NCBI GenBank assembly: GCA_050178385.1
Contig: JBFXGD010000078.1
Span: 1 to 14,930, forward strand
Reading direction: 5' to 3'
Length of the DNA stretch: 14,930 bases
From: Calditrichaceae bacterium
GTDB lineage: Bacteria > Calditrichota > Calditrichia > Calditrichales > JBFXGD01
The notes below the pieces were generated by a model. The model saw nothing but the letters and a program-made list of their open reading frames with translations, was not told the origin of the DNA and made no database searches. Every line of letters begins with the position of its first letter. The stretch's first letter is position 1. The translations under genes were made by a program, and so were the position numbers. This document shows positions 1,469-14,930 of this stretch, piece by piece.

Positions 1469-3928
1469 CTAGCCAAGATATTTTGACATCTTCTGATAAA
1501 CAGCTTCTTTAAGAGATTCGTATGTATGATTTTCCGGATAAACCGGGCTGTGAAATTTCACAAATATCTTCTTAAAAGGTTTTGGAAAATGGCTGCCTGA
1601 CGGTAAAGCTTCAAACGCGCCTCTGATGGTGACCGGTACAACGGGAACATTCAATTCGCGGCTTAGAATGGCGAAGGTTTTCTTGAAAGAACCAATATGA
1701 CCGTCTTTTGAGCGTGTTCCTTCCGGAAAGATGATGATATTTTTACCCTTCTTTAAGGCGGCGGCCATCTTCTGCAGGGAAATTTTCAGGTCTTTATTGA
1801 TATCCATAATGATGACATTGTTCCGGTCAGCGATAAATTTGAGCCATTTTTTGCTGACGTGTTTTTCTTTCGCGTAAAAATAGGTTTTTTTCATCTGCTT
1901 GTTTTTGAGAAAAGAGACAACAAAAAGACCATCGAAAAAACTCTGGTGATTTGGCGCGAGTATAAATGGCGACTCCGGCAAATTCTCGGTGCCTTCACCT
2001 TTTAACCGGAAATATAAGTTCAGAAATACCCGTGAAGTGTTTTTGAACAGATTATGCGTGAACCAGCTTTTCGGCAGATTAATATCCAGTTTTTCCCGCA
2101 GAATATCGCCCCAGTTTACCGTTTCCACATCGATTTTAACTTTTTCGTCACGGACGACGAGCGCCAGTTTTTCTATAGTCGGGTACTGCATAAACTCTTC
2201 TTCTTTGATATCTACGCCAAAGGTAGAATTCAGGAATACCTGTAAACTTACTTTTCCAAGGGAGTCAAGACCAAGATCGATTTCTATATGATCGTCATGA
2301 TAGACTTCACGGCCTGCTTCTTCATTGAGAAATTGCTTAATGATTTTGTATTCTTCGAAATCCGGTTCTTCTCCGCGCTGTCTCTCACTGCGCGTATCTT
2401 CAGACAATGATGGAAGCATAAAACGCTTGACTTTGCCAAGCCTTGTCTTCGGAAGTTCCTCTTTTAGAATACTGAAATTGGTGATTCTTTTGTATGGTGA
2501 AACCTGGGAATTATATTTATTGATAATTTCCTGCCTGAAAATTTCTTCAATATTTAATAAACCATCCTCCTGAATCCTGGCGAAGTCGGGATAAATTGCC
2601 GCCTGAAGTGTATCACCTTTCAGGAATACGCCGATTTCGTTGATATATGCGGACATGTTTAGGATTTTGAACTCAACTTCCACCGGATTTACATTCTTGC
2701 CATTGGGGAGAATAATAATTTCTTTTTTACGACCGGTAATGACCAGATGACCGTCTTTGTCCAATCTTCCCAGATCCCCTGTGTAAAGCCATCCATCCTT
2801 TAATATTTCGTCAGTCTCCTCTTTCCGGTTATAATATCCCTGCATCACGTTTCTGCCCTTGGCGGTAATTTCGCCTTCATCGGTGATGCGGATTTCATTG
2901 GTCATCATCCGTTCGCCGGCGGATCCTATTTTCCATCTGCCGGGACGGGTAAAGGAGATCATCGGCGCGGCTTCTGTCATGCCGTAACCGGGCAGTATTT
3001 CGAAACCCAGAGTCTTGTAGTCCCTGGCGACTTCATCATCGATGGCGGCTCCACCGCATACCATAAAGTGGACATTACCGCCGAATTTTTGTTGTACGGT
3101 TTTGAACAACACCTTTGAGAATGCCCGTGAATCAATTTTTTCCGCCAGCTTGAACAGGGTTTTGGTAACCGCGCTTTTATTAATTTTGTCCATTATGCCT
3201 TTTCTTATAAGATTATAAAATCGCGGTACGCCGATGATAATGGCGATGGCATTGTTCTGCAGGGTTTCCATGATGTCTTCCGCCGCCATGGAAGGGGCGA
3301 AAGCGATCGTTGAACCCACAGAAAGCGGCGCGATCATCGAACCAATCAGCGGGAATGTGTGATGCAAAGGCAATAACACCATCACGTTTCTGTCAGATGT
3401 GTAAATATTGACATAATCAGAAACAGCTTCAACATTTGCCAGAATATTATCAAAAGAAAGCATGACGCCTTTCGGACTTCCGGTTGTTCCCGATGTATAA
3501 ATAATTAACGCTGTTTTGTCTTTATCGGGTTCGGGAAATACGGAGTTTACCGAAGGCGCGTTACGGATATCGATATCTTCAAATTTTAGAACTTTTTGGT
3601 CATACGTTACCGTTTGCAGCGCGCTCTCAACCGTTTTGTAAGTTTCATTGGAGCAGAAAATAATTTCAGGTTTACAGTCATTTAATATATACGCGACTTC
3701 ATCGGAAGTAGACATATAATCGATTGGAACGGCGATACAATCATTTTTCCAGGACGCGTAAAACGCATATACCCAGTCAAGGCTGTTTTCGGCGAAAATT
3801 GCGACCTTTTTTGTTTTGGCGGATTCAAATAATCCGGAGTAATAATCAACATTTTTTACAAGCGTTTCGTAACTGATTTTCAGGTCTTTCCAGACGAGGG
3901 CCGTTTTACCGTGATCTTTTAGAAACAA
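1469..3928 (-). CDS. Tri-domain long-chain fatty acid AMP-ligase / acyl carrier protein / PlsC-type acyltransferase (Aas-like), 819 aa
   Basis: AMP-binding motifs YTSGTTGSPKG, GYGMTE, GWLYTGDLG and GRKKEII. Phosphopantetheine site DLGLDSL (Ser codon at 2261-2263). Acyltransferase motifs NHQSFFD (HX4D) and FPEGTRS. Start revised to TTG at 3928 (AAGGAG 6 nt upstream) because the ORF-track extension to 4009 overlaps the promoter. Confidence 0.9.
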   Translation of the reverse strand: MFLKDHGKTALVWKDLKISYETLVKNVDYYSGLFESAKTKKVAIFAENSLDWVYAFYASWKNDCIAVPIDYMSTSDEVAYILNDCKPEIIFCSNETYKTVESALQTVTYDQKVLKFEDIDIRNAPSVNSVFPEPDKDKTALIIYTSGTTGSPKGVMLSFDNILANVEAVSDYVNIYTSDRNVMVLLPLHHTFPLIGSMIAPLSVGSTIAFAPSMAAEDIMETLQNNAIAIIIGVPRFYNLIRKGIMDKINKSAVTKTLFKLAEKIDSRAFSKVLFKTVQQKFGGNVHFMVCGGAAIDDEVARDYKTLGFEILPGYGMTEAAPMISFTRPGRWKIGSAGERMMTNEIRITDEGEITAKGRNVMQGYYNRKEETDEILKDGWLYTGDLGRLDKDGHLVITGRKKEIIILPNGKNVNPVEVEFKILNMSAYINEIGVFLKGDTLQAAIYPDFARIQEDGLLNIEEIFRQEIINKYNSQVSPYKRITNFSILKEELPKTRLGKVKRFMLPSLSEDTRSERQRGEEPDFEEYKIIKQFLNEEAGREVYHDDHIEIDLGLDSLGKVSLQVFLNSTFGVDIKEEEFMQYPTIEKLALVVRDEKVKIDVETVNWGDILREKLDINLPKSWFTHNLFKNTSRVFLNLYFRLKGEGTENLPESPFILAPNHQSFFDGLFVVSFLKNKQMKKTYFYAKEKHVSKKWLKFIADRNNVIIMDINKDLKISLQKMAAALKKGKNIIIFPEGTRSKDGHIGSFKKTFAILSRELNVPVVPVTIRGAFEALPSGSHFPKPFKKIFVKFHSPVYPENHTYESLKEAVYQKMSKYLG

Positions 3929-3959
3929 GCTGTTCTCCTTATCTATATGCTTAGCTGTA

Positions 3960-3988
3960 ATTATAATGATAATATTGCATTTTGTAAA
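3960..3988 (-). promoter_or_regulatory. sigma70-type promoter of the acyl-ligase fusion gene
   Basis: Minus strand reads TTTACA (3988-3983), 17 bp, TATAAT (3965-3960), about 30 nt upstream of the TTG start. Confidence 0.75.
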
Positions 3989-4137
3989 GGCTAAAGTGCC
4001 TGAAAACAAAGTATAAAATCAAAAATTGCCGTATGAAAGATGGTTTAAATCAATTAGTAATACTGTAGGTTATGACGCAGAAACCAGAACCTGAAAAACA
4101 TATTTTTTATCTCATACCTTCATAAAAAATTATTTTA

Positions 4138-4166
4138 TTGACAATGATAAAGGTATGTTTTATACT
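4138..4166 (+). promoter_or_regulatory. Near-consensus sigma70 promoter of the operon
   Basis: TTGACA (4138-4143), 17 bp, TATACT (4161-4166), with an AT-rich UP-element-like tract upstream. Confidence 0.85.
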
Positions 4167-4174
4167 TGATTTAA

Positions 4175-4188
4175 GTTGTACGGACAAC
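4175..4188. promoter_or_regulatory. Putative GntR/HutC-family operator
   Basis: Palindrome GTTGT-ACGG-ACAAC just downstream of the predicted +1. It resembles HutC-subfamily sites (TTGTA-NN-ACAA type), and a GntR-UTRA gene lies in the operon. Confidence 0.75.
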
Positions 4189-4205
4189 CGCACAACCGCA
4201 CAACC
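4184..4205 (+). repeat. 8-bp tandem repeat ACAACCGC x2.75
   Basis: acaaccgc acaaccgc acaacc, overlapping the right arm of the operator palindrome. Confidence 0.85.
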
Positions 4206-4226
4206 AGAATTTATCTGGAGAATGGT

Positions 4227-5621
4227 ATGAAATTTAATCGACTTGGCAGTGTAGTTACGGCCATTCTGATTATACCCGCCGTCTTGCTCTGCTCACAAAA
4301 CTCACTTATCCCCGCGGATACCCTGACCATCGGATTGATAGGCGATCAGACCGGATCATATGACCTGTCGGCGACCTATCAAATCATGGAAAAGGCGGTT
4401 GAACAGATGGATGCTAAAAATCCCGATCTCGTACTGCATGTAGGCGATCTGGTTGAAAGCATCAGAGGCATCAACTCCTTTGAAGATTATAAATCGAATT
4501 TTGACTATGCTGTGAACATACTCAATCGTCTGAATGCGCCCTGGTATCTCACCGCGGGTGATCATGATGTGGCACCACCTGTTTATCAGGCCGGATCATG
4601 TGACAGATCAAGGGAAGAATGGTTCCAGAAACTGTGTTCAGCCGCCGGTTTGCCCATGGAAAAGCAACTATATTACAGTTTCGACTTTAATAATTATCAT
4701 TTTATTTCCCTTTACTCCCTTGAAAATTTACATACCGATCCCAGATGGGGTCCCATTTTTTTGAATCAGTTGTCTGATGAACAAATCGCCTGGTTAAAGA
4801 ACGATCTGGAAGCTCACAAAAACGCGCCGGGGATCATAGTCCTTGTACATCAGCCTCACTGGTATGTGTGGTCAAACTGGTCGGAAATTCACCAAATACT
4901 CAGACAATATCCGGTTGCGGCGGTCATTGCAGGACATTTTCATTATGATCAGGATGACGGTATGATCGATCAGATAAGATACCTGGTGATGGGCGCCACG
5001 GGAGGCGTCGTTAAAAATATGGATCCCAATTCAGGCGGATCATCTCAATTCGCTACTCTTAAGCTGTATAAGAACAAGGTTACCCATATCAATCTTTTTG
5101 ATCTTTCATCGGGTGAATCTCTTGAACTGACGCCCCGCAGGACCATGGACCGGCTTCAGGCGCTCTCCTGTATGCTTGATAATTTGTTTATGGATGAAAA
5201 TATAGGCCGTAAGAACGGACAGCTTTTTACCATCACAGGCGAAGGCCAGTACAGCTCATTGAAACAAATCGGCCTGGAATCACTGGCGAATCCGATCGAT
5301 TTGCCGATTCGAATTAAGATAAGCACGGACCGGGATATACTTCAAAATCCGCGCTGGATCCGTTCAGGGAAGTCAATCCCGGATTCTTCTTTTATCGAAT
5401 TGGAACCCGGTGAGAGAACTGGCTGGGCAAATTATACCAGTGTGGGGCAATGGGCTAAACCGGATCCTTTATGGGTGTGTGATCTTACCGGTAATCCGGA
5501 GAGATTAAAGGATCTTACCGGTATTGCCATAACGATAAAGATTTCATTCACTGATCAGGGTGAACGCTGGGTTGAATCAACTGCCCGTTTTCCCGTAAAA
5601 AAAATTGAAGACAATTTATAG
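4227..5621 (+). CDS. Secreted/periplasmic calcineurin-like metallophosphoesterase with a C-terminal domain of unknown function, 464 aa
   Basis: ATG at 4227 follows GGAG. Signal-peptide-like N-terminus MKFNRLGSVVTAILIIPAVLLCSQ. Motifs GDQTG, HVGDLVE, AGDHD, VHQPH and AGHFH. The ORF-track TTG at 4176 lies within the operator. Confidence 0.85.
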   Translation: MKFNRLGSVVTAILIIPAVLLCSQNSLIPADTLTIGLIGDQTGSYDLSATYQIMEKAVEQMDAKNPDLVLHVGDLVESIRGINSFEDYKSNFDYAVNILNRLNAPWYLTAGDHDVAPPVYQAGSCDRSREEWFQKLCSAAGLPMEKQLYYSFDFNNYHFISLYSLENLHTDPRWGPIFLNQLSDEQIAWLKNDLEAHKNAPGIIVLVHQPHWYVWSNWSEIHQILRQYPVAAVIAGHFHYDQDDGMIDQIRYLVMGATGGVVKNMDPNSGGSSQFATLKLYKNKVTHINLFDLSSGESLELTPRRTMDRLQALSCMLDNLFMDENIGRKNGQLFTITGEGQYSSLKQIGLESLANPIDLPIRIKISTDRDILQNPRWIRSGKSIPDSSFIELEPGERTGWANYTSVGQWAKPDPLWVCDLTGNPERLKDLTGIAITIKISFTDQGERWVESTARFPVKKIEDNL

Positions 5622-5651: not shown

Positions 5652-6428
5652 ATGGCAGTAAACGTTACAGAAATTGAAAAATCAAGTGTAATACCAATTT
5701 ATCACCAGTTGTACTCCATTCTGCTCGATTTAATACACAGCGAAGTTTATAAGCCTTATGACCGGCTTCCTTCGGAAAATGAACTCACCGCGCAATATAA
5801 AATCAGCCGTCAAACGGCTCAAAAAGCTTTAAATGTCCTTGTTGAACAGGGAATTGCTCACCGGATGCAGGGGAAGGGTACTTTTGTGAGCGATAAGACG
5901 ATCACTTACAGCATCACTGCCTCTTTGAGTTATTCCACGGAAATAATCGGATTAAATAAAGTTCCCCGAAGCGAGTTAATTCATGCAAAGGAAATTGAAA
6001 CATCAGGTCTTATCTCAAGGAATCTCTCGCTGGACGAAGGATCTCCCGTTTACAGCATTCAAAGGGTTCGTTATGTGGATGATATTCCAATGGCTTTGCA
6101 GACTTCCTATATACCGAAATATCTCGTACCCGGACTGATCGATAAAAAATTTGAAGAAGGCTCATTGTTTAAAACGATACGCAAAGAATACCAGCTGGAA
6201 ATCGGTCACGCCACTGAATATTTGAAAGCGGTAAAATGCGATCAATATGAATCCAAAAGGCTCTGCATTATGGAAGGAGACGCTATTCTGCTCCTTGAAA
6301 GAATCACCCGCTTAAAGGACGGTAGAATTCTTGAATTTGTAAGGTCCGTCCTGAGGGGCGACAAAAGCAAGATATCAATCGATCTGTCAACCTATACTAA
6401 CGGGGAGAGGAAAACTGTTGGAAGATAA
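5652..6428 (+). CDS. GntR-family transcriptional regulator, HutC subfamily (wHTH + UTRA)
   Basis: PIYHQL...RLPSENELTAQYKISRQTAQKALNVLVEQG...QGKGTFV, followed by a UTRA-like domain (RVRYVDDIPM...SLFKTI...LLLERIT...EFVRSVLRGD). Confidence 0.93.
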   Translation: MAVNVTEIEKSSVIPIYHQLYSILLDLIHSEVYKPYDRLPSENELTAQYKISRQTAQKALNVLVEQGIAHRMQGKGTFVSDKTITYSITASLSYSTEIIGLNKVPRSELIHAKEIETSGLISRNLSLDEGSPVYSIQRVRYVDDIPMALQTSYIPKYLVPGLIDKKFEEGSLFKTIRKEYQLEIGHATEYLKAVKCDQYESKRLCIMEGDAILLLERITRLKDGRILEFVRSVLRGDKSKISIDLSTYTNGERKTVGR

Positions 6429-6939
6429 ACGCGGACATTTCAACACCGGAACGGGCAAAAAAGAATATTTTACCCCGAAAAGAATCGCGCGCATTTCCAT
6501 CCTGATTGCCATTAGCGCGGTGGGTTCATTAATAAAGATTCCAAGCCCCACAGGAACAGTCTCTCTTGACGCGTGTACCGGGTATTTCTCGGCAGTGACA
6601 TTCGGCTGGATTGAAGGATCGCTTGTGGGTGGCCTCGGGCATATGCTGTCGGCTTTTACAACCGGTTTTCCACTCGGCCTTCCGGTACATCTCTATATCG
6701 CGTTTCAGATGGCTATCTGGGTTTCGGTATTCTCAATCATCGCCCGTAAAATTAATCTGATCCTTGCTGTCATTGCGGCCATCTTCTTAAATGGAGTGGT
6801 TTCATCCTATTTAATAATTCCGTTTGGCGGTATGGGTATGGCGACCGCCCTTTTAATTCCGCTGATTGTGGGCTCGGCGGTTAATATCATTATTGCCGCT
6901 CTGGCTTATAGAATTGTTCAAAAGAGTAATTTTGTATGA
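6418..6939 (+). CDS. cblT: ECF transporter S component, CblT-like (alpha-ribazole transporter family)
   Basis: 173 aa hydrophobic protein. IKIPSPTGTVSLD...GHMLSAFTTGFPLGLPVHL matches the CblT signature as I recall it (GH.LSA...GFPL.LP.HL). It sits directly upstream of a cblS-like gene. TTG start follows GGAGAGG. Confidence 0.8.
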   Translation: MEDKRGHFNTGTGKKEYFTPKRIARISILIAISAVGSLIKIPSPTGTVSLDACTGYFSAVTFGWIEGSLVGGLGHMLSAFTTGFPLGLPVHLYIAFQMAIWVSVFSIIARKINLILAVIAAIFLNGVVSSYLIIPFGGMGMATALLIPLIVGSAVNIIIAALAYRIVQKSNFV

Positions 6940-7763
6940 AAACAGAACTATTACCTGAACTGGATATGCTTTATTCTCATCTTAAAAAGGGTGAAAATAA
7001 CTTTAAGCATAGCCAGGTAAGAGATCTCACCAAAATTGGTCTGGGGAACGGCTATTCTCTTATAGTGGCGGTAGATTCGGACGGCGGGATCGGCTCGCGT
7101 CCGGGAGATTTTGTCAAAACGGATGATTATCTGGTTGGCAGATTTGCCATGCGTGTGCCTTTGTTGGAGATTCTGGCTTCCGGCGCGCTCCCGCTGGCCG
7201 CGTTTGATACATTGACTTTGCCCATGGATGATCACGGACTGAAAATTATCAAAGGCATAAAAGATGAATTAATGGAAGCGGGACTCGGAAAGGATTTTCC
7301 GCTGTCCGGGAGCACGGAAGACAATGTACCGACAAAGGAAACCGGTATCGGCACCATGGTGATTGGTATCGTTCATGACAGAGATTTTCGTCCGGGAACC
7401 GGCGTCGCGGGTGACGTGGTTGTTTGTCTCGGAATACCGAAATCTGCTCCCGGGGACAAAGTTACTATTGATGATGCTCAGATTGTGAAATTGAAAGAAA
7501 TAAGGCAAATATCGGAAAAATCTGATATTCATGACATTCTTCCGGTGGGATCTCATGGGGTTTTATATGAAGCTATGAAAATGGCGGACTCTGCCGGATT
7601 AAACTTTAGGGTGCTGGAAAATTCAGGAATTGATCTTAAAAAATCCGGAGGCCCGGGTACCTGTATCATTCTATCCTGTAAAGTAATGATGGGAAAAGCA
7701 CTCCGGAAGTTAACAGGCGCTCCTGTGACAAAAATCGGACAGCTGGAAAAAAGAAGTATCTGA
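6936..7763 (+). CDS. cblS: CblS-like alpha-ribazole kinase (PurM/AIR-synthase-related fold)
   Basis: QVRDLT, DSDGGIG, RVPLLEILASGA, GIKDEL, GSTEDN, PVGSHG.LYEA and KSGGPGTC follow, in order, the motifs I recall from Listeria CblS (QVRDLS, RVALLEMLASGA, GLKDEL, GSTEEN, PVGSKGMAYEA, KTAGPAS). ATGA overlap with cblT. Confidence 0.8.
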   Translation: MKTELLPELDMLYSHLKKGENNFKHSQVRDLTKIGLGNGYSLIVAVDSDGGIGSRPGDFVKTDDYLVGRFAMRVPLLEILASGALPLAAFDTLTLPMDDHGLKIIKGIKDELMEAGLGKDFPLSGSTEDNVPTKETGIGTMVIGIVHDRDFRPGTGVAGDVVVCLGIPKSAPGDKVTIDDAQIVKLKEIRQISEKSDIHDILPVGSHGVLYEAMKMADSAGLNFRVLENSGIDLKKSGGPGTCIILSCKVMMGKALRKLTGAPVTKIGQLEKRSI

Positions 7764-7805: not shown

Positions 7806-9536
7806 TTGAATTTAATCTTTGAAAATGTCAATTACCAGTACCCAAAAGGTAAGACGCTTGCGCTCAAAGATATCAATTTAGCCACAGGCGGAGATCGTGT
7901 AATTGCGTTGATGGGACGGACCGGATCGGGCAAGACAACGTTGTTAAGCGCAATGAACGGGATTATACCTCAGTTTCATGACGGTAATTTTGACGGAAAA
8001 GTTCTGCTGAATGAGGACTCTACATCCGATCTGCCTATTCAGCAGCTTGTCCGCAAGGTGGGTCTTGTTCTACAGGACCCGGAGACACAGATTTTTGGAT
8101 TAACTGTTGAAAAAGACATCGCCTTCGGCCCAAGTAATTTGAATTTTCCAAAAGAAAAAATAAATGAAATTGTAAAAATGTCCGCTAGAGCCGTTAATCT
8201 GGAATCATTTATGGAAAGGTCTCCCGATCAGCTCTCCGGGGGCGAAAAACAACGGCTCGCCATTGCCGGCATACTTGCTCTTGAGTCACCGGTGCTGGTT
8301 CTGGATGAACCAACTTCTGAACTGGATCCGGAAGGCGCGGAAACAGTCAATCAGGCATTACAAAATTTGAAGAACGGGGGACACCGGCTGATCATTTTCA
8401 GCACCCATAATCCCGATAATGTAATCGGTTCAGCGGATGAAATATGGGTCATGGAAAGCGGTGAAATTAAATATATAGGCGATCCCGGAAATTTTTTCAG
8501 TCATATGGATTTACCGGGAATTTACGGATTGCAAATTCCGGAGGTAACCGATCTTTTTAGAAAAATGCATTACCTCAATTGGTACAAAAAAGATGAACTG
8601 CCTGTGACTCTGGAATCGGCCGTTTCGGATTTTGAAAAAATTCTGAAAAAAGTAAAAAATATTAATGTGCCGCGTGCCAAATATCTTATGACGCGGTCTG
8701 CCGGATCGCAGAACAGAATTATTGAGATAGACAGATTAAGTCACCATTACACCAGCGGACAGCTTGCGGTGGACAATGTGTCGCTTACGATTAATTCGCA
8801 GCAGATTGTCGCAATCCTTGGTAAAAACGGCGCGGGCAAAACCACGCTGGTCAAACATCTGATCGGGTTGCTAAGACCCACTCAGGGAAGGGTGTTGATC
8901 AAAGGCCGGGACATCGCGGATCTCAGAATCGAGGAGATAAGCCGTGATGTGGGTTTTGTGTTTCAGAACCCGGATCATCAGATATTTTCACCGTCAATCT
9001 ATGAAGAAATTGAATATGGTCTGCTTAATCATGGATTTGATAAAGTGTCAGCAAAAGAAAAAATTCAGAATGCTCTGGAACTGACAGGACTTACCGGTAA
9101 GGAGCATTTACACCCGTTCAGCCTGAGTAAAGGAGAGAGACAAAAAATTGCCATGGCATCCGTCCTGGCGGTGGAGCCTGAAATAATTGTAATCGATGAG
9201 CCCACTACCGGTCTTGACTGGAGAGATTCCATAGCTCTCATGGAAGAAATACGCAAACTAAAGGAAAAAGGCCATACGATCATTATGATTACACACAACC
9301 TGCGTCTGGCGGCTGATTATGCGGATAAAGTGATTCTATTGCAGAATGGTAAACTGATTTGTGAAGGAGAAACCCACTCCATATTGAATGATATGGAGTT
9401 GCTGAAGAAAACCTCATTGAGGCCTTTGCAGATCTCGCTGTTGGTTCACAGGATGAAAAAATACGGAATACCACAGGATATCATCACGATAAGCGAATTA
9501 ATTGATTATATGAAATTTGTAATACAGGAAAACTAG
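7806..9536 (+). CDS. ECF transporter fused double ATPase (EcfA-EcfA')
   Basis: Two ABC cassettes: GRTGSGKT / LQDPETQ / LSGGEKQR / LDEPT and GKNGAGKT / FQNPDHQ / LSKGERQK / IDEPT. The Q-helix PxxQ is typical of ECF ATPases. Confidence 0.92.
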   Translation: MNLIFENVNYQYPKGKTLALKDINLATGGDRVIALMGRTGSGKTTLLSAMNGIIPQFHDGNFDGKVLLNEDSTSDLPIQQLVRKVGLVLQDPETQIFGLTVEKDIAFGPSNLNFPKEKINEIVKMSARAVNLESFMERSPDQLSGGEKQRLAIAGILALESPVLVLDEPTSELDPEGAETVNQALQNLKNGGHRLIIFSTHNPDNVIGSADEIWVMESGEIKYIGDPGNFFSHMDLPGIYGLQIPEVTDLFRKMHYLNWYKKDELPVTLESAVSDFEKILKKVKNINVPRAKYLMTRSAGSQNRIIEIDRLSHHYTSGQLAVDNVSLTINSQQIVAILGKNGAGKTTLVKHLIGLLRPTQGRVLIKGRDIADLRIEEISRDVGFVFQNPDHQIFSPSIYEEIEYGLLNHGFDKVSAKEKIQNALELTGLTGKEHLHPFSLSKGERQKIAMASVLAVEPEIIVIDEPTTGLDWRDSIALMEEIRKLKEKGHTIIMITHNLRLAADYADKVILLQNGKLICEGETHSILNDMELLKKTSLRPLQISLLVHRMKKYGIPQDIITISELIDYMKFVIQEN

Positions 9537-10337
9537 ATGTTTTTAGAATACCAAAAGGGGAATTCGATTCTGCATAGACTCGATATCAGGACAAAGGGAC
9601 TGGGGTTTATCGTTGTCGTCATTGCTGCTTTTTTGTTTACAGCACCCGAGTATAATTTAATCATATTAATTCTGTGCCTGGCATTAATGAGACACATCCG
9701 GATGCCGGCGAGCAGGCTGGAGATGATGCTTAAGCCCCTGATCCCTATCCTGATTTTAATAATACTTTTCTCAGCGGTTTCTTACAGTCCTGAATATTTT
9801 CAGAAACCTATGTCTCAAAAAGTCTTGTTCTCAGCAGGATTTATGACATGCACGGTTGGCGGCATTCTGCTGGGTATTTCTCTAAGCATCAGAATACTGA
9901 CCATGGTAATCGCCTCGACGCTACTGACTTATTCAACACCGATTGATGACTTTATACACATACTCAGGCTTATGCGAGTTTCGCATAAAATTGCCTTTGT
10001 TCTCACAACAGGAATGAGATTTATACCAACCATGGACAAAAAATCACGACAAATTATAGAGGCGCAAAGAACCAGAGGCGCTAATTTCCATGAGGGCGGC
10101 CTGGTCCGTAAAATCAAAGCTTATATTCCGGTAATGGTCCCGATGATCGTCGAATCGCTCCGCATGTCGGAAAACCTGGCTATGGCGATGCTGAACCGCG
10201 GGTTCGGCGCGTCAAAAAACTGGACGGTTATGGACGAGCTGAATCCGGGTATAAAAGATGCCGTTATTACGATTTCTTTACTGTTTATTATCACTCTGTT
10301 GATTTATTTAAAAATTTTAGGATACGGAAAAATCTGA
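9537..10337 (+). CDS. ecfT: ECF transporter transmembrane T component
   Basis: Y..GNSILHRLDIRTK N-terminus, RFIPT motif, and two coupling Arg motifs (EAQRTRG, AMLNRGF). Starts immediately after the ATPase stop (TAGATG). Confidence 0.92.
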   Translation: MFLEYQKGNSILHRLDIRTKGLGFIVVVIAAFLFTAPEYNLIILILCLALMRHIRMPASRLEMMLKPLIPILILIILFSAVSYSPEYFQKPMSQKVLFSAGFMTCTVGGILLGISLSIRILTMVIASTLLTYSTPIDDFIHILRLMRVSHKIAFVLTTGMRFIPTMDKKSRQIIEAQRTRGANFHEGGLVRKIKAYIPVMVPMIVESLRMSENLAMAMLNRGFGASKNWTVMDELNPGIKDAVITISLLFIITLLIYLKILGYGKI

Positions 10338-10350
10338 AAAGGAAAATGTT

Positions 10351-11352
10351 ATGTCTGAACTGGAAGAAAGAATTTATGGTGCGTTAATTGGGGTTGCGGC
10401 GGGTGATGCCATGGGTATGCCCTCGTCAATGATGAGTCCGGAAATCATTCGCTCTACTTTCAAGACATACATCACCGATTTCCTGCCGGCTCCGAAAGGA
10501 CATGTCATACATGATAAGATGGCAGCAGGGCAAATAACCGATGATACACAGCAAACCCTGTCACTGGCGGATTCAATCATTGAGAAGGGGTTTGTGGATC
10601 CGCATGATGTGGCAAAAAAACTTATCGAATGGGCGGAATCGGTTGATGCCTTCGATTCAATGATTCTTGGGCCGAGTACGCTTCGAAGCCTTTACGCAAT
10701 CAAGGCAGGCAAGTCAATTGAGGAATCCGGGACAGCGGGGGATACAAACGGCGCGGCAATGAAAATAAGCCCGGCAGGAATTTTTGGAATGGGCAATCGT
10801 GAAAAAACGGTCGATGCGGTCGCGAAAGTTTGCATGGCTACTCACAACACCAATATTGCGATTGCGGGGGCATCTGCTGTCGCGATGGCTGTGGGCAAAG
10901 GTATCACCGGTGAACAGGACATGAATACAATCATCGCGCACGCGTTTCAGGCGGTGGAGCTCGGGATGGGAAAGGGAAGGATATGGTACGGGGCATCGAT
11001 CATTGACCGCACAAGATTGGCGCTTGAAATTGTCTCCGGAAATTCCGAGAAATCCGAAAAACTGGAAACGCTTTACAAAGTCATTGGCGCGGGTGTTGCT
11101 ATGACGGAAACGGTTCCCGTTTGTCTGGCCATCGCCAAACTGGCTGAAGGCAATCCGGTGGAGGCGATTCAGATGGCGACGAACCTCGGCGGAGACTGTG
11201 ATACAATCGCTTCTATTACAGGCGGAATTTGCGGGGCCATCTCCGGGTCCAGGGCATTCCCCAATAAATGGATTGAAATAATTGAAAGAGTTAATCATTT
11301 AAATCTGGAGGGGTACGCGCGCAAATTATATCAGGTCGTCAATAAAAATTAG
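10351..11352 (+). CDS. ADP-ribosylglycohydrolase (DraG/ARH family), YegU-like subgroup
   Basis: GALIGVAAGDAMGMP, QITDDT, LGPST, TNGAAMKISP, TH, LYKVIGAG...ETVP and NLGGDCDTIA. The metal-binding TDD and DxDT motifs are intact. No signal peptide, so cytoplasmic. Confidence 0.92.
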   Translation: MSELEERIYGALIGVAAGDAMGMPSSMMSPEIIRSTFKTYITDFLPAPKGHVIHDKMAAGQITDDTQQTLSLADSIIEKGFVDPHDVAKKLIEWAESVDAFDSMILGPSTLRSLYAIKAGKSIEESGTAGDTNGAAMKISPAGIFGMGNREKTVDAVAKVCMATHNTNIAIAGASAVAMAVGKGITGEQDMNTIIAHAFQAVELGMGKGRIWYGASIIDRTRLALEIVSGNSEKSEKLETLYKVIGAGVAMTETVPVCLAIAKLAEGNPVEAIQMATNLGGDCDTIASITGGICGAISGSRAFPNKWIEIIERVNHLNLEGYARKLYQVVNKN

Positions 11353-11371: not shown

Positions 11372-13261
11372 ATGTCCATTTTTAATCATCTTCGAATTTA
11401 TGCAATTGTTTTATTTTTAATCGTACTTGTATCGCATACATTGGGTAGTGATGACTCGACGAAAGTAAAACAGGATAGGATGGCGGAACGGGTGATTCTT
11501 ACCGCCGAGGATTTTAAGAAATTAAATTGTGAAAATGTCGGTGACGCTTTGAGTAATCTTTCGGGTGTCACGGTGAGTTCATTAGGGGAGGTCTCTCTAA
11601 GAGATGTAAGTTCATCAAAAGTGGTCATCATATTTGACGGACAAAAATTAAATACAGCCGGCGGAACCGGAGTCAGGGTCAATTCTATTTCGATTGAAAA
11701 TATTGAAAAGGTAGAGCTTCTGAGGGGCGGCCGGTCAGCTCAGTACGGCGCCGATGCTGTCGGAGGTGTTATACGTATTACTTCAAAAACACAGAAATCT
11801 CAGGAAGCTCTCTGGAACGTTGGCGCGAGGGCCAGTTACGGTTCATACAACAATCAGATATACGGTTTAAATCACTCTCTTTCTTCGGGTTCATTTGATT
11901 ATTTTGCTTCCTATAAACGGGAAACATGGGATGGTGACTTTGAATACACTGACAATTTCGGAGAACGGGTCAATCTTGAAAATAACGAGCAGGATTCTTA
12001 TTTTCTGTTTCTTAAATCCGGTTACAGGCTGGATGACATCCAGAACATCAACGCCTCATTCAGTTATTACAAAGCGGACAATGGTACACCTGGTATGATT
12101 GACAACCAGACTCCGAACGCGCGTATCCGTTTTGATAACAAATCCTACAATCTCAACTATGACAATAAAGCTCTATTTAAAGATTTCTCAATGAAAATGC
12201 AGGGATATTTTCTGGACAATGAGACAAAATTTGATGACCCGGACGGTTTGGTACCCGTTCACAGTGATCATGACAATTATGCGCTGGGAATTGATCTGCA
12301 GCAGGCGGGAAACCTTTCGGAACTGCTGAGTGTTTCCTATGGTTATTCCTATCGAAACGACCGTATTGAAAGCACGGATATCGAGAATAAAAACCGGGAT
12401 ACACAGAGCGGTTTCTCAACGCTCACCATTGCTAAGGATGTGAATAAATTGATCTCGCGCTGGGATGTTGCCCTTGCCCTGAGATATGATGCTCCTTCAG
12501 ATTTTGACCCCGAATTCAGTCCGCGCCTAAGCATCGGTGTTTCAAGCAATAATGACCTGGTAAACACTTCATTGCAGACTCATATAACCCGTTCATACCG
12601 CGCGCCCACGTTTAATGATCTGTATTGGCCCCGTGATGCTTTCGCGGTCGGAAATCCTGATCTTAAGCCCGAAGTAGGATTTAATTATGATATCGGAATT
12701 AATCTGTCAAAAACGATTGAATCGGCAAATTTGTCCGGATCAGTAAACTACTTCGTCAATGAGGTAACGGATTTAATCCTGTGGGCTCAGGACCCGGCTT
12801 TGAACAATTTATGGACCCCAAAAAACATATCGGAAACATCGACTAAGGGAATTGAATTTTCAAGTACGATTGATCTGTTTAAAGGCAAAGTCGTTTTGAA
12901 TTCGGAATACACCTATATGAAAGCCCTGGATAAGGGTCCTGATCCGAACAGGAATAACAAGTATATCATTTACAAACCCAAAAATAAATTAGATTTTACC
13001 GGGACATTCAGACTGTACGATTTTGAATGGAATATCATGTATCATTATTACGGATTGCGGTACACTAACCCCGCGAATACGTTGTGGCTCGATGCGGTGA
13101 GCCTGATTGATACAAATGTAACTTATAAATTCGACTTTAATCGTTATAAAGCAAATATCACCTTTGAGGTAAGTAATCTCACCGATGAAGACTATCAGCG
13201 TGTGCGGAATACCGCTGAACCCGGAAGAATGTTTAAGATGTCATTTGGAATAGATATTTAG
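11372..13261 (+). CDS. TonB-dependent outer-membrane receptor, BtuB-like (copy 1; no N-terminal extension, no evident TonB box)
   Basis: Signal peptide. Plug motifs VVIIFDGQKLN and IEKVELLRGGRSAQYGADAVGGVIRI. Barrel motif YRAPTFNDLYW...GNPDLKPE. C-terminal NLTDEDY...PGRMFKMSFGIDI. Confidence 0.88.
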   Translation: MSIFNHLRIYAIVLFLIVLVSHTLGSDDSTKVKQDRMAERVILTAEDFKKLNCENVGDALSNLSGVTVSSLGEVSLRDVSSSKVVIIFDGQKLNTAGGTGVRVNSISIENIEKVELLRGGRSAQYGADAVGGVIRITSKTQKSQEALWNVGARASYGSYNNQIYGLNHSLSSGSFDYFASYKRETWDGDFEYTDNFGERVNLENNEQDSYFLFLKSGYRLDDIQNINASFSYYKADNGTPGMIDNQTPNARIRFDNKSYNLNYDNKALFKDFSMKMQGYFLDNETKFDDPDGLVPVHSDHDNYALGIDLQQAGNLSELLSVSYGYSYRNDRIESTDIENKNRDTQSGFSTLTIAKDVNKLISRWDVALALRYDAPSDFDPEFSPRLSIGVSSNNDLVNTSLQTHITRSYRAPTFNDLYWPRDAFAVGNPDLKPEVGFNYDIGINLSKTIESANLSGSVNYFVNEVTDLILWAQDPALNNLWTPKNISETSTKGIEFSSTIDLFKGKVVLNSEYTYMKALDKGPDPNRNNKYIIYKPKNKLDFTGTFRLYDFEWNIMYHYYGLRYTNPANTLWLDAVSLIDTNVTYKFDFNRYKANITFEVSNLTDEDYQRVRNTAEPGRMFKMSFGIDI

Positions 13262-13268
13262 GAAAAAC

Positions 13269-14930
13269 ATGTATTCAAAAATGATCAAATACTGTTTTAC
13301 AGTTTGCGCCTTTCTTCTTATGGGAAATGAGGATCTGAACGCGCAGGACAGCGGGAAAATCTATGGGTATATACTGGACAGAAATACGGGAAAACCTATA
13401 GAACAGGCCTGTGTCGTGCTTGATCCGGATTCAATCGGCGCAGAAACTAATTTCGACGGCATTTATTTTATTCCGAAGATACCCTCGGGCAGGTATCAGC
13501 TGCGAGTTGAGATGATCGGTTACGAAACCATTTCAGAGCATTCCGTTACAATTCAGCCGAATGAATCCAGGGAAATGAATTTCTTTCTAAAGCCGATTAT
13601 CTTAACCGGCTCTGATGAGATTGTTGTCACCGCGACCCGTGGAAAATCAATGACGAATGAAGTTCCGGCATCGGTGGATGTCATAAGTATGGAAAAGATA
13701 CAGCTTCTTGCGCCGCAGAATATGGCGGAAGTGCTTGAAAATGTACAGGGTGTATTTATTAAGGATTACGGAGGCATCGGTGGGAATAAGACCATCTCAC
13801 TAAGAGGCTCCAGTTCGGAACAGGTGCTTGTTCTCCTGGACGGTCAGAGATTAAATGACGCGCAGAGCGGACAGGTTGATTTCAGCGCAATCTCTTTGGA
13901 AGGAGTTGAGAAAATTGAGGTGGTAAGGGGAGGTAATTCAGCACTTTACGGGGCTGACGCGGTGGGCGGCGTCATAAATATCATTACGAGTAAAAAACAC
14001 GACAGGGAAGGCATATCAGGTTCGTTAAAAATGATGAACGGTTCTTTTCAATCTTTATCCGTAGAACCCGCGCTTAAAGTCAGATATGATAATTTCGGCG
14101 GATCACTTAGCTTTAAATATCTCAGCAGCGAAGGAGACTTTTCTTATAAAAATCTTGAAGGCCGGGATGAAAAGCTCGACAATAATGACATTACCGCACA
14201 GGATCTGTTCGCGCGTTTTTACTATCTGTTTGACGACTCCCTTTTTCAAAGAACGCTGAATTTTTCATACAAATATTATGACTCCGAGAGAGGCAGCCCC
14301 GGGAATATTGAACTTCCGTATCGTTCTGCCCGTCTCTGGAACACAAGCCAGCAATTTAATACGACATTTTCCGGAAAAGTTTTTAATCTGATGAACGATC
14401 TTCAGGTTCAGGCCTACGCGCATACAGGTAATTCAAGATATAAAAATGACGAAGGCCTTGTTCTGATAGACAGCCGTTACGAAAACGGCACCTACGGTCT
14501 GGAAACACAGATGCAATCCATATTTACCGGCGGACAAATGCTCACATACGGCGCGGGTTACCGAAACGATTGGATGAACAGCGAAGAGTTTGCCGAAGAC
14601 CATACAAGGGATTCCTATTATATTTTTCTGCAAAATGAGACCGAAATTAAGATGAAAAACCATTATCCGCTGAAATCATTGACATTTGTGCCTGCCGTGC
14701 GGCTGGATGGATTTTCTGATTTCGGGTCACACGTATCTCCGAAAATCGGCGGAGTGATAAACTTTGGACACTCCTGGCAAACAGCTCTCAAATGGAACGC
14801 CGGTCTCAGTTACCGGGCGCCTAATTTTAACGAATTGTACTGGCCGGAAGACGCGTGGACAAAAGGAAATTCTGATCTGGAAGCGGAACACGGCTATGAC
14901 TGGGATGCGGGGATACGGCTTCGCTACCCG
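13269..14930 (+). CDS. TonB-dependent receptor, BtuB-like, with carboxypeptidase-regulatory-like N-terminal domain (copy 2; 3'-truncated by the window edge, not in ORF track)
   Basis: Manual translation is open from ATG 13269 to the end: MYSKMIKYCFTVCAFLLMGNEDLNAQDSGKIYGYILDRNTGKPIEQA...IGYET..., TonB box DEIVVTA (13614-13634), plug IKDYGGIGGNKTISLRGSSSEQVLVLLDG, IEVVRGGNSALYGADAVGGVINIIT, ...SYRAPNFNELYWPEDAWTKGNSDLEAE. Confidence 0.9.
   Translation, partial: MYSKMIKYCFTVCAFLLMGNEDLNAQDSGKIYGYILDRNTGKPIEQACVVLDPDSIGAETNFDGIYFIPKIPSGRYQLRVEMIGYETISEHSVTIQPNESREMNFFLKPIILTGSDEIVVTATRGKSMTNEVPASVDVISMEKIQLLAPQNMAEVLENVQGVFIKDYGGIGGNKTISLRGSSSEQVLVLLDGQRLNDAQSGQVDFSAISLEGVEKIEVVRGGNSALYGADAVGGVINIITSKKHDREGISGSLKMMNGSFQSLSVEPALKVRYDNFGGSLSFKYLSSEGDFSYKNLEGRDEKLDNNDITAQDLFARFYYLFDDSLFQRTLNFSYKYYDSERGSPGNIELPYRSARLWNTSQQFNTTFSGKVFNLMNDLQVQAYAHTGNSRYKNDEGLVLIDSRYENGTYGLETQMQSIFTGGQMLTYGAGYRNDWMNSEEFAEDHTRDSYYIFLQNETEIKMKNHYPLKSLTFVPAVRLDGFSDFGSHVSPKIGGVINFGHSWQTALKWNAGLSYRAPNFNELYWPEDAWTKGNSDLEAEHGYDWDAGIRLRYP

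Follow-up and report, generated by a model that had tools for sequence, protein, structure and literature searches.

The window of this study is a stretch of 14,930 nucleotides (nt) from Calditrichaceae bacterium that makes up the entire contig JBFXGD010000078.1 of a 3.9-Mb genome (94% complete). At 4227..5621 on the + strand it encodes what is, to judge from its sequence, an exported and apparently active metallophosphoesterase (MPE). We give an even chance to the proposal that this MPE is a periplasmic corrinoid nucleotide-loop phosphoesterase, whose alpha-riboside product would be imported, phosphorylated, and cleaved by an ADP-ribosylglycohydrolase-family enzyme (ARH) of the same operon. 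Cobamides are scarce and shared; most microbes rely on production by others, and the handling of B12 analogues decides growth. The proposal draws on the conserved catalytic motifs of the enzyme, on the cobalamin riboswitches and cobamide genes that surround its relatives, and on the homology of two downstream genes to alpha-ribazole salvage genes.

The gene is an open frame of 464 codons that runs from ATG at 4227 to TAA at 5619-5621, with GGAG at 4217-4220, 6 nt 5' of the ATG. The signal sequence (residues 1-22, 4227..4292, +) ends at Cys22 and contains K2 and R5, followed by 16 uncharged hydrophobic residues (6-21); its best 12-residue Kyte-Doolittle mean is 2.92. In an AlphaFold model, residues 5-22 form a helix and 23-28 a linker of low confidence, and the catalytic core starts at residue 32. 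The signal peptide described in an earlier reading of the DNA (hereafter the sequence-only reading) is thus borne out. A lipobox-like xxx[GAS]C was found by regular expression in 46 of the 111 homologues with an intact N-terminus; the protein of the window has a non-canonical VLLC22 in place of a lipobox.

The catalytic domain (residues ~31-295, 4317..5111, +) matches Pfam PF00149 over residues 37-240 (E 9.6e-15, 55.9 bits against a cut-off of 21.5). The canonical motifs of metallophosphoesterases are D-x-H, GD-x-x-D, GNH[DE], H, and GHxH. All five motif blocks of the superfamily are present in the family, with the substitutions GDQ[TF] (no His), GDxxE, and GDHD; in the window they read GDQTG (residues 39-43), GDLVE, GDHD (111-114), H208, and GHFH. 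Residues G39, D40, Q41, G73, D74, E77, G111, D112, H113, H208, G236, H237, and H239 are invariant in 36/36 aligned homologues (39-88% identity), and the seven metal-ligand positions and H113 are thereby all unchanged. The unusual motifs are therefore a conserved trait of the family and not decay. The closest relative is an 88% identical protein in a Calditrichaceae genome.

The sequence-only reading had singled out GDQTG as motif I and GDHD as motif III, both of which are confirmed, and had called the metal ligands atypical, which holds in part. A phmmer alignment with rat purple acid phosphatase (PAP) pairs GDQTG with GDWGG; E77 takes the place of the Fe-binding Tyr in GDNFY, and D112 that of the Asn in GNHD. 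The His-less motif I is therefore the pattern of PAPs, and on this alignment the real ligand departures are Glu77 for Tyr and Asp112 for Asn. The two extra carboxylate ligands would favour harder metals (Fe3+, Mn2+, Ca2+, or Mg2+) and leave no purple chromophore. The full AlphaFold model has a predicted local distance difference test score (pLDDT) of 90.6. Its best Foldseek matches were PAPs (E ~1e-10), followed by Rv0805, acid sphingomyelinase (ASM)/SMPDL3A, and GpdQ. At E<=0.001, 276 PDB chains matched the model, and nearly all of the matches listed were phosphoesterases of the MPE fold (PAP, Rv0805, ASM, GpdQ, PhoD, and Mre11).

The remainder of the protein is a family-specific C-terminal domain (residues 296-464 plus stop, 5112..5621, +) with a long helix (304-322) and an Ig-like beta sandwich. 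The sequence-only reading had recognised no family there, and Pfam, even at E 0.1, gave no match over residues ~296-464. When residues 296-464 were folded alone from 41 sequences, one long helix and a beta sandwich were obtained at pLDDT 91. A Foldseek search of this domain against the PDB returned nothing at E<=0.001, and VIA-align against representatives returned generic PapD/MSP/Ig-like sandwiches only (best Z 6.9). Such predicted-fold matches are too generic to yield a function, and no new fold is claimed. R304, D308, R309, Q311, A312, N355, P356, D358, and N402 are invariant in the 41 sequences. The profile built from them found 83 representatives among 1.84 billion proteins. In matching proteins of 415-525 amino acids (aa) the domain stands at the C-terminal end; shorter rows resemble fragments, and nine long proteins (734-3685 aa) match only via short repeated stretches.

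The link to cobamides comes from the relatives of the enzyme. A pattern scan with one genome per species gave 66 related loci, the neighbours of which were searched by tblastn with the window proteins. A quick maximum-likelihood tree was built from 48 rows, 18 of the 66 loci having been dropped (coverage <380 residues or stops). All 27 window-type rows fell into one group (Shimodaira-Hasegawa-like approximate likelihood ratio test, 100) on a stem of 0.79 changes per site; apart from it stood 19 rows from Acidobacteriota, Thermodesulfobacteriota, and others. The cobalamin riboswitch, MPE, and CobS were searched in 50 genomes; 14 loci were left out, and 5 of their genomes were searched separately.

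Of the 29 sister-clade genomes, 10 have a cobalamin riboswitch on the contig of the MPE gene and no farther than 10 kb from it. The riboswitch stands 5' of the gene on the same strand in G028, G031, G033, G036, and G039, is divergent from it at a distance of 130-220 nt in G029 and G038, and lies just downstream in G034, G037, and G053. In G029, G037, G038, G039, and G053, with genomes of 3.7-8.8 Mb, the MPE-linked riboswitch is the sole one found. The ten cases count as fewer than ten independent events because the genomes are related, but two phyla or more are represented, with several gene orders. Locus L037 reads riboswitch, CN_hydrolase, MPE. Loci L032 and L040 read riboswitch, TonB-dependent receptor, TonB-dependent receptor, BtuR or radical SAM, CN_hydrolase, MPE, CobN, with an additional receptor after CobN in L032 only. 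CobS was found in 27 of the 29 genomes but not in the two from Hyphomonadaceae; in five it is at most 10 kb from the MPE gene (0.9-2.4 kb in G039, G040, and G053). Other neighbours are BtuR, CobN, CbiK, CbiB, Peripla_BP_2 (BtuF-like), FecCD, and a BluB-like nitroreductase, together with a CobS-His_Phos_1 fusion in L041. These gene contexts support a cobamide link of MPE at the family level.

Several further observations were made in the sister-clade loci. Two tandem MPE paralogues lie directly behind a riboswitch, within ~190 nt, in L035 (G031:C219:3662-6657), and all three riboswitches of the 7.8-Mb G031 genome are on that MPE contig. A recurrent protein of 500-650 aa, with an N-terminal CN_hydrolase (nitrilase/amidase) domain and a C-terminal half without family assignment, is encoded directly 5' of MPE in four Desulfobulbus loci, three of them riboswitch-led (L032:8031-9983, L040:8469-9986, L037:990-2525, L038:1108-2649), and also in the riboswitch-rich neighbourhood of MPE in L035 (12477-14333); it may be a corrinoid amidase. 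In Desulfobulbus, a CobN/Mg-chelatase-family protein of 1270-1290 aa follows MPE between TonB receptors (L032:11427-15287, L036:9090-12965, L040:11454-15278). Loci of the hmu type with CobN-like proteins resemble this arrangement.

The genes downstream of MPE in the window provide the second line of evidence. They encode, all on the + strand, a GntR/UTRA (HutC-type) regulator (5652..6428; Pfam UTRA 5.5e-37, GntR 2.7e-17), a CblT-like S component of an energy-coupling factor (ECF) transporter (6418..6939; Pfam ECF_trnsprt 3.7e-15), an AIR-synthase-related protein of the PurM/ThiL superfamily that is a CblS-like putative alpha-riboside kinase (AIRS-like; 6936..7763; Pfam AIRS 2.9e-5), a fused ECF ATPase (A-A'; 7806..9536; NCBIfam ECF_ATPase_2, 469 bits against a cut-off of 330), an ECF T component (9537..10337; Pfam CbiQ 2.4e-31), and the cytoplasmic ARH (10351..11352; Pfam PF03747 8.5e-61). 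In the ESM Atlas, the clusters nearest to the AIRS-like protein are auto-named 'alpha-ribazole kinase' (score 0.97), which we take as no more than a lead. An attempt to name the protein by sequence search was set aside: no 'alpha-ribazole kinase' occurred among the best 120 of 264 homologues, and NCBIfam returned a weak SelD row only.

Homologues of the AIRS-like protein (E<=1e-5) were found in 74 of 301 sampled Bacillota genomes, and 30 of the 74 (the 19 best and 11 hand-picked lower down) were examined. Of the 30, 18 have a cobalamin riboswitch on the strand of the AIRS-like gene and no more than 10 kb upstream of it: none of the 8 with the closest homologues (43-50% identity) and 18 of the 22 others (31-41%). 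Four riboswitch-linked loci (L095-L098) were fetched; all have the order riboswitch-S component-AIRS-like, each led by RF00174. CobS is present in 12 of 12 tested genomes with riboswitch-led pairs. The S component of the window is 36-43% identical, and its AIRS-like protein 40-42% identical, to the pairs of L095-L098. The kinship to CblT and CblS that the sequence-only reading had assumed is therefore well founded, since both proteins are homologues of riboswitch-led pairs in CobS-positive Bacillota, to which databases give the names CblT/CblS.

The closest homologues have another setting. Six of the eight lie in a GntR-ECF S-AIRS-like-ECF AA-ECF T-ARH module with no riboswitch nearby (loci L087-L092, from Bacillota genomes G108, G328, G259, G290, G190, and G343; five complete, one cut by the contig end). 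The S components of this module are 56-58% and its ARHs 43-44% identical to those of the window, and CobS was found in none of the six genomes. The cytoplasmic and transport half of the window operon is therefore a portable, GntR-regulated sister of cblT-cblS. Judged by its gene company, the GntR-regulated S/kinase subfamily, always accompanied by ARH, looks catabolic. In all, 33 of 34 genomes with the ARH module have no CobS. An ABC1-type atypical kinase adjoins the module in L087 and L091.

The AIRS-like/ARH pair keeps company with three kinds of nucleoside-type importer. It goes with an ECF importer in the window, in L002 and L003, and in the six Bacillota loci; with a CNT nucleoside transporter in L011, L015, and L025, where the transporter lies inside the locus; and with a PnrA-type ABC importer in L093 (G179:C1:3075000-3092000), where the pair is part of a nucleoside ABC operon with two IU-nucleoside hydrolases. 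The same-strand series of L093 also includes an MFS transporter, and its genome has CobS. From these importers we infer that the imported product of the locus is a nucleoside.

The last two genes of the window encode TonB-dependent receptors, both BtuB-like: receptor 1 (11372..13261, +), and receptor 2 (13269..14930, +), which has an N-terminal CarboxypepD_reg domain and is cut by the contig end. The best PDB matches of receptor 1 are BtuB-type chains, namely a Bacteroides receptor chain (8bmx_C, 1.2e-23) and BtuB1 (8blw_A, 6.1e-23), and the receptor matches Escherichia coli BtuB at 2e-20 against 1e-14 for CirA. A full-length orthologue of receptor 2 from L003 matches Bacteroides thetaiotaomicron BtuB1 at 9e-35, E. 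coli BtuB at 8e-34, and CirA at 2e-31. BtuB is also the best match of the receptor that adjoins MPE in a Hyphomonadaceae genome.

Loci with window-type neighbours come from Calditrichota, Marinimicrobia/Fidelibacterota, and a few metagenome-assembled genomes (MAGs) labelled otherwise. Among the 66 loci, GntR was found next to MPE in 26, ARH in 25, the AIRS-like protein in 24, and receptor 1 at >=45% identity in 24; the ECF S component was found in 3 (L002, L003, and L060). The Marinimicrobia loci have no ECF system and carry varying replacements: a DUF5074/YncE-type beta-propeller, an S-adenosylhomocysteine (SAH)-hydrolase-like protein, the CNT nucleoside transporter of L011, L015, and L025, and an EamA-like membrane protein. 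A Peripla_BP_2 protein lies downstream in L009, L019, and L023. The Marinimicrobia propeller weakly matches the chains 8blw_B, 8bmx_D, and 8p97_B (2e-5 to 1.6e-3), which are of the YncE-family/surface-layer type and belong to entries that also hold a BtuB chain; it matches other YncE-family entries at 8.4e-6, and its best match is an archaeal surface-layer propeller. In L009 of the Marinimicrobia genome G011, a riboswitch-led TonB receptor of 710 aa is divergent from MPE at a distance of 300 nt. The unit at L009:161-9696 (-) runs from the riboswitch to this receptor and on to a protein that begins with DUF5074 and ends in a type IX secretion tail, and it ties DUF5074-type proteins to B12 uptake in Marinimicrobia. 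The SAH-hydrolase-like protein is a divergent NAD protein of ~400-460 aa, regular in the Marinimicrobia loci (L014:19115-20332, L013:6345-7586, L011:6436-7659, L017:10545-11750, L006:11178-12467, L008:9869-11137, L007:14720-15967, L026:18892-20280). Its Pfam E of ~1e-45 is, we presume, far weaker than a genuine SAH hydrolase would give. Often the next genes encode a CNT nucleoside transporter and an EamA-like protein.

Put together, these genes suggest the following scheme. The binuclear MPE, secreted or lipid-anchored in the periplasm, would act on the corrinoid cargo of the BtuB-like TonB receptors. The favoured reaction would be cleavage of the nucleotide-loop phosphodiester of a cobamide, with chemistry like that of CbiR; alternatively, phosphate might be removed from an alpha-ribotide or a corrinoid phosphate, and either reaction would release an alpha-riboside. 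This product would be imported by the CblT-like ECF transporter and phosphorylated by the CblS-like kinase, and ARH would then split the phosphorylated product into base and ribose 5-phosphate. The GntR/UTRA regulator would control the locus from a TTGT-N4-ACAA site over the transcription start. In this arrangement the BtuB-like receptors and MPE would form an outer layer, confined to diderms, that harvests from a large TonB-imported molecule. In CobS-positive relatives, cleavage by MPE would begin remodelling in the periplasm. We infer the substrate and the bond attacked, the metals involved, the sequence of events in the cytoplasm, and the effector of the regulator.

A phosphoester of the loop is favoured because the cobamide joins corrin to an alpha-nucleoside, ARH is alpha-specific, and the kinase is of the alpha-ribazole type. 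The ARH family is specific for alpha-ribosyl bonds and, to our knowledge, no well-known natural molecule other than a cobamide links corrin-type TonB cargo with an alpha-nucleoside through a phosphodiester. The diester is preferred to the monoester because TonB cargo is implied and not a porin-sized ribotide.

Several points weigh against this proposal. The first concerns the use of the products. No match to RF00174, CobS, CobU, CobT (DBI_PRT), CbiB, or CobA was found in the genome of the window, although each of those searches was positive in 5-9 of 14 control genomes. Seven B12-binding-domain proteins are nevertheless encoded in the genome of the window, one of them in a 1241-codon frame. 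None of the 27 genomes in the MPE clade of the window yielded CobS, and no riboswitch adjoins the MPE locus in 26 of the 27, the exception being G011/L009. All clade genomes are MAGs, in which single absences are weak and the consistency across genomes counts. Without CobS, CobU, CobT, CbiB, and CobA, alpha-ribazole phosphate has no known use in the organism of the window. For B12 users that do not assemble the loop, cleavage of a cobamide would mean the loss of a cofactor that they need, and since a cleaved cobamide has no known rebuilding route, the gain to the cell is unexplained. What becomes of the corrin product, for which no fate is known in this organism, is the chief point left unexplained. 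Since B12 occurs only in traces, it is also hard to believe that its nucleoside would bring a catabolic benefit.

The other difficulties concern the assignment itself. The long stem (0.79) that separates the group of the window from the riboswitch-linked clade means that the function may have shifted. The window receptors score 147 and 172 bits on the NCBIfam TonB-B12 equivalog, far from its cut-off of 599.7, and the margin of BtuB over CirA is small for receptor 2. PAPs are mainly monoesterases. No report that links a metallophosphoesterase or ARH to cobamides turned up in the literature covered, which mostly excluded subscription journals. The sequence-only reading had MPE supply CblT and CblS for B12 assembly. 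That part is contradicted by the lack of CobS in the clade and of CobU, CobT, CbiB, and a riboswitch in the genome of the window. The enzyme activity it proposed, a periplasmic cobamide phosphodiesterase or alpha-ribazole-phosphate phosphatase, gains from the sister-clade linkage to riboswitches and to btuB-like, cobS, cbiB, btuR, and cbiK genes.

On a rival reading, MPE would be a general periplasmic nucleotidase or phosphodiesterase. It would release nucleosides from ordinary nucleotides outside the cell, from cyclic nucleotides, or from short oligonucleotides, and the ECF or CNT transporter would import them, with no special corrinoid tie. We regard this as unlikely, but it fits the lack of a riboswitch and of CobS in the clade, the CNT transporters of L011, L015, and L025, the position of the L093 pair beside a PnrA-type importer and two IU-nucleoside hydrolases, and a HutC-type GntR regulator, which is typical of catabolic operons. 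MPE also has weak NCBIfam similarity to cyclic-nucleotide phosphodiesterases (1.5e-6, far under the cut-off). However, nucleoside scavenging leaves unexplained the riboswitch/btuB/cobS loci of the sister clade and the homology of the kinase and S component to riboswitch-led cblT/cblS-type pairs. It also does not say why ARH should be used where ordinary nucleoside hydrolases or phosphorylases suffice, or why TonB receptors should serve solutes that pass porins.

The presence of ARH could instead point to a substrate of the ADP-ribose type (NAD, ADP-ribose, poly(ADP-ribose) fragments, or alpha-NAD). MPE would then be a periplasmic pyrophosphatase or phosphodiesterase, and an alpha-linked ribosyl nucleoside product would be imported, phosphorylated, and cleaved by ARH. 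The ARH family is defined by the hydrolysis of alpha-linked ADP-ribosyl bonds, and the nearest PDB relatives of the window ARH are MJ1187 (6.6e-30), then DraG and ARH3. Some metallophosphoesterases are ADP-ribose/CDP-alcohol pyrophosphatases, and the fold matches of MPE include 2nxf, a dimetal phosphatase from zebrafish. Nevertheless, no NAD-salvage gene was seen in the scanned loci, the receptors match BtuB best, the kinase/S pair is kin to cblS/cblT-type pairs, and the sister clade is linked to riboswitches and cobS. We therefore hold this explanation to be quite improbable.

It is very improbable that MPE is an acid or alkaline phosphatase of the PAP type that scavenges phosphate, or a non-catalytic ligand-binding lipoprotein that aids capture by the receptors: PAPs are its closest solved structures in sequence and fold, and the lipobox-like motif of 46/111 homologues recalls the B12-capturing surface lipoproteins of Bacteroides, but every catalytic residue is invariant across 39-88% identity, no Pho-type neighbours were seen in the scanned loci, and steady linkage to a nucleoside importer, kinase, and glycohydrolase is not expected of phosphate scavenging.

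As to the layout of the operon, a 217-nt gap separates the MPE gene from the divergent gene at 1469-4009 (-), and MPE is the first gene of a long same-strand series because that upstream gene is on the other strand; the sequence-only reading had placed it so. The divergent gene encodes a protein of 846 aa in which an AMP-binding enzyme is fused to a carrier domain and an acyltransferase, the last of which weakly matches models of acyl-[ACP]-phospholipid O-acyltransferase; the gene looks ordinary and unrelated to the locus. A sigma-70-like promoter was read from the sequence at 4138..4166 (+), with TTGACA at 4138-4143, a 17-nt spacer, and TATACT at 4161-4166. An operator-like element follows at 4176..4205 (+) and consists of TTGTACGGACAA, which holds the inverted repeat TTGT-N4-ACAA, and two ACAACCGC-type repeats. 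A longer frame from TTG-4176 was rejected as the MPE start because it reads through this conserved promoter/operator region.

The TTGACA...TATAxT arrangement is also found 5' of the conserved motif in related loci, where the conserved leader after the -10 box is TTGT-N4-ACAA, then ACAACC repeats. Of 28 upstream regions examined in the clade, 16 have TTGT-N4-ACAA at 25-162 nt 5' of the start of MPE, against a whole-locus background of only 25 occurrences in 399,571 nt. The leader is present in the window and in L002, L003, L004, L009, L014, L016, L017, L019, L020, L022, L023, L024, L026, L044, and L053. By its position and conservation, the element is probably the binding site of the GntR/UTRA regulator. 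Rfam at the gathering score gave no match anywhere in the window. When 3900-4400 was searched at E<=10, the only matches were chance ones to snoRNAs and sRNAs, so no known riboswitch accounts for the conserved leader. Database proteins P0022, P0024-26, P0033-34, and P0079-80, among others, have false N-terminal extensions that translate the leader.

If the proposal is right, B12 users without CobS in Calditrichota and Marinimicrobia would couple MPE to an undescribed pathway of alpha-riboside disposal, made up of a CblT-like importer, a CblS-like kinase, and ARH as an alpha-ribotide N-glycosidase. This would be the first suggested cellular role of a bacterial ARH outside ADP-ribosylation, and the near confinement of the ARH module to genomes without CobS (33/34) is itself a concrete, testable lead. 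In Acidobacteriota and Desulfobulbia, the exported phosphoesterase would add a new step to corrinoid salvage; the family is also tied to the alpha-riboside-type kinase/glycohydrolase module in Calditrichota and in the abundant marine Marinimicrobia. In the boldest version, lower ligands would be exchanged in the periplasm by transesterification, driven by the destruction of alpha-ribosides in the cytoplasm.

Among known systems, the closest solved structures are the PAPs (mammalian ACP5/TRAP; 1qhw, 1ute, and 1war), with a sequence E of 2e-4, a Foldseek E of ~1e-10, and a template modelling (TM) score by target of 0.6. MPE shares with them the His-less GDxxG motif I, the motif-IV His (H208), GHxH, and a secreted location. 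It differs in that the Tyr of GDxxY is replaced by Glu77 and the Asn of GNH[DE] by Asp112, both invariant in the MPE family, in its extra C-terminal domain of 169 residues, in an identity of 16-19%, and in its genomic setting. The motif-II Tyr ligand is what makes PAPs purple. GpdQ (2dxl) and Rv0805 (2hy1 and 3ib7) have the same fold (Foldseek 1e-9 to 4e-9, TM by target 0.64-0.75) and show that an MPE-type fold readily cuts diesters; they keep the canonical DxH and GNHD motifs and have neither the C-terminal sandwich domain nor a tie to TonB receptors.

Among cobamide enzymes, we know of two that cleave the loop, CbiZ and CbiR, and neither is presented as an exported enzyme in the literature covered. 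CbiZ cuts an amide. The alpha-ribazole phosphate phosphatase CobC is a histidine phosphatase, and MPE has no Pfam match to the His_Phos_1 fold of that type. CbiR of Akkermansia muciniphila hydrolyses the nucleotide loop at its phosphoribosyl bond, with cobinamide phosphate and alpha-ribazole as the products; it is a metal-dependent member of the AP endonuclease 2 superfamily encoded next to cobamide genes (mBio 2020, PMC7733943). Its likeness to MPE lies in the proposed chemistry and not in homology: MPE matches only Metallophos families in Pfam and not AP endonuclease 2. As far as the main text goes, CbiR homologues stand among cobamide biosynthesis genes and the word 'periplasm' does not occur (PMC7733943), whereas MPE is exported and the genomes of its clade are unable to rebuild the loop. 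That the MPE family is a third class of cobamide nucleotide-loop cleavers after CbiZ and CbiR, and the first periplasmic one, is possible but rather doubtful.

For uptake, the nearest comparison is BtuB-BtuG of Bacteroides (8blw, 8bmx, and 8p97), whose BtuB chains are the best matches of the locus receptors, at low similarity; no phosphoesterase turned up for these systems in the literature covered. For the cytoplasmic half it is the alpha-ribazole salvage system CblT/CblS of Listeria (mentioned in ISME J 2018, PMC6461909). The S component and AIRS-like protein of the window fall into a separate subfamily (56-58% and 43-50% identity, respectively), and the window module differs from CblT/CblS in having its own A-A' and T components, GntR, and ARH, and no riboswitch. 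MPE itself belongs to a known superfamily and combines altered ligands, a private domain, and a new, coherent genomic role.

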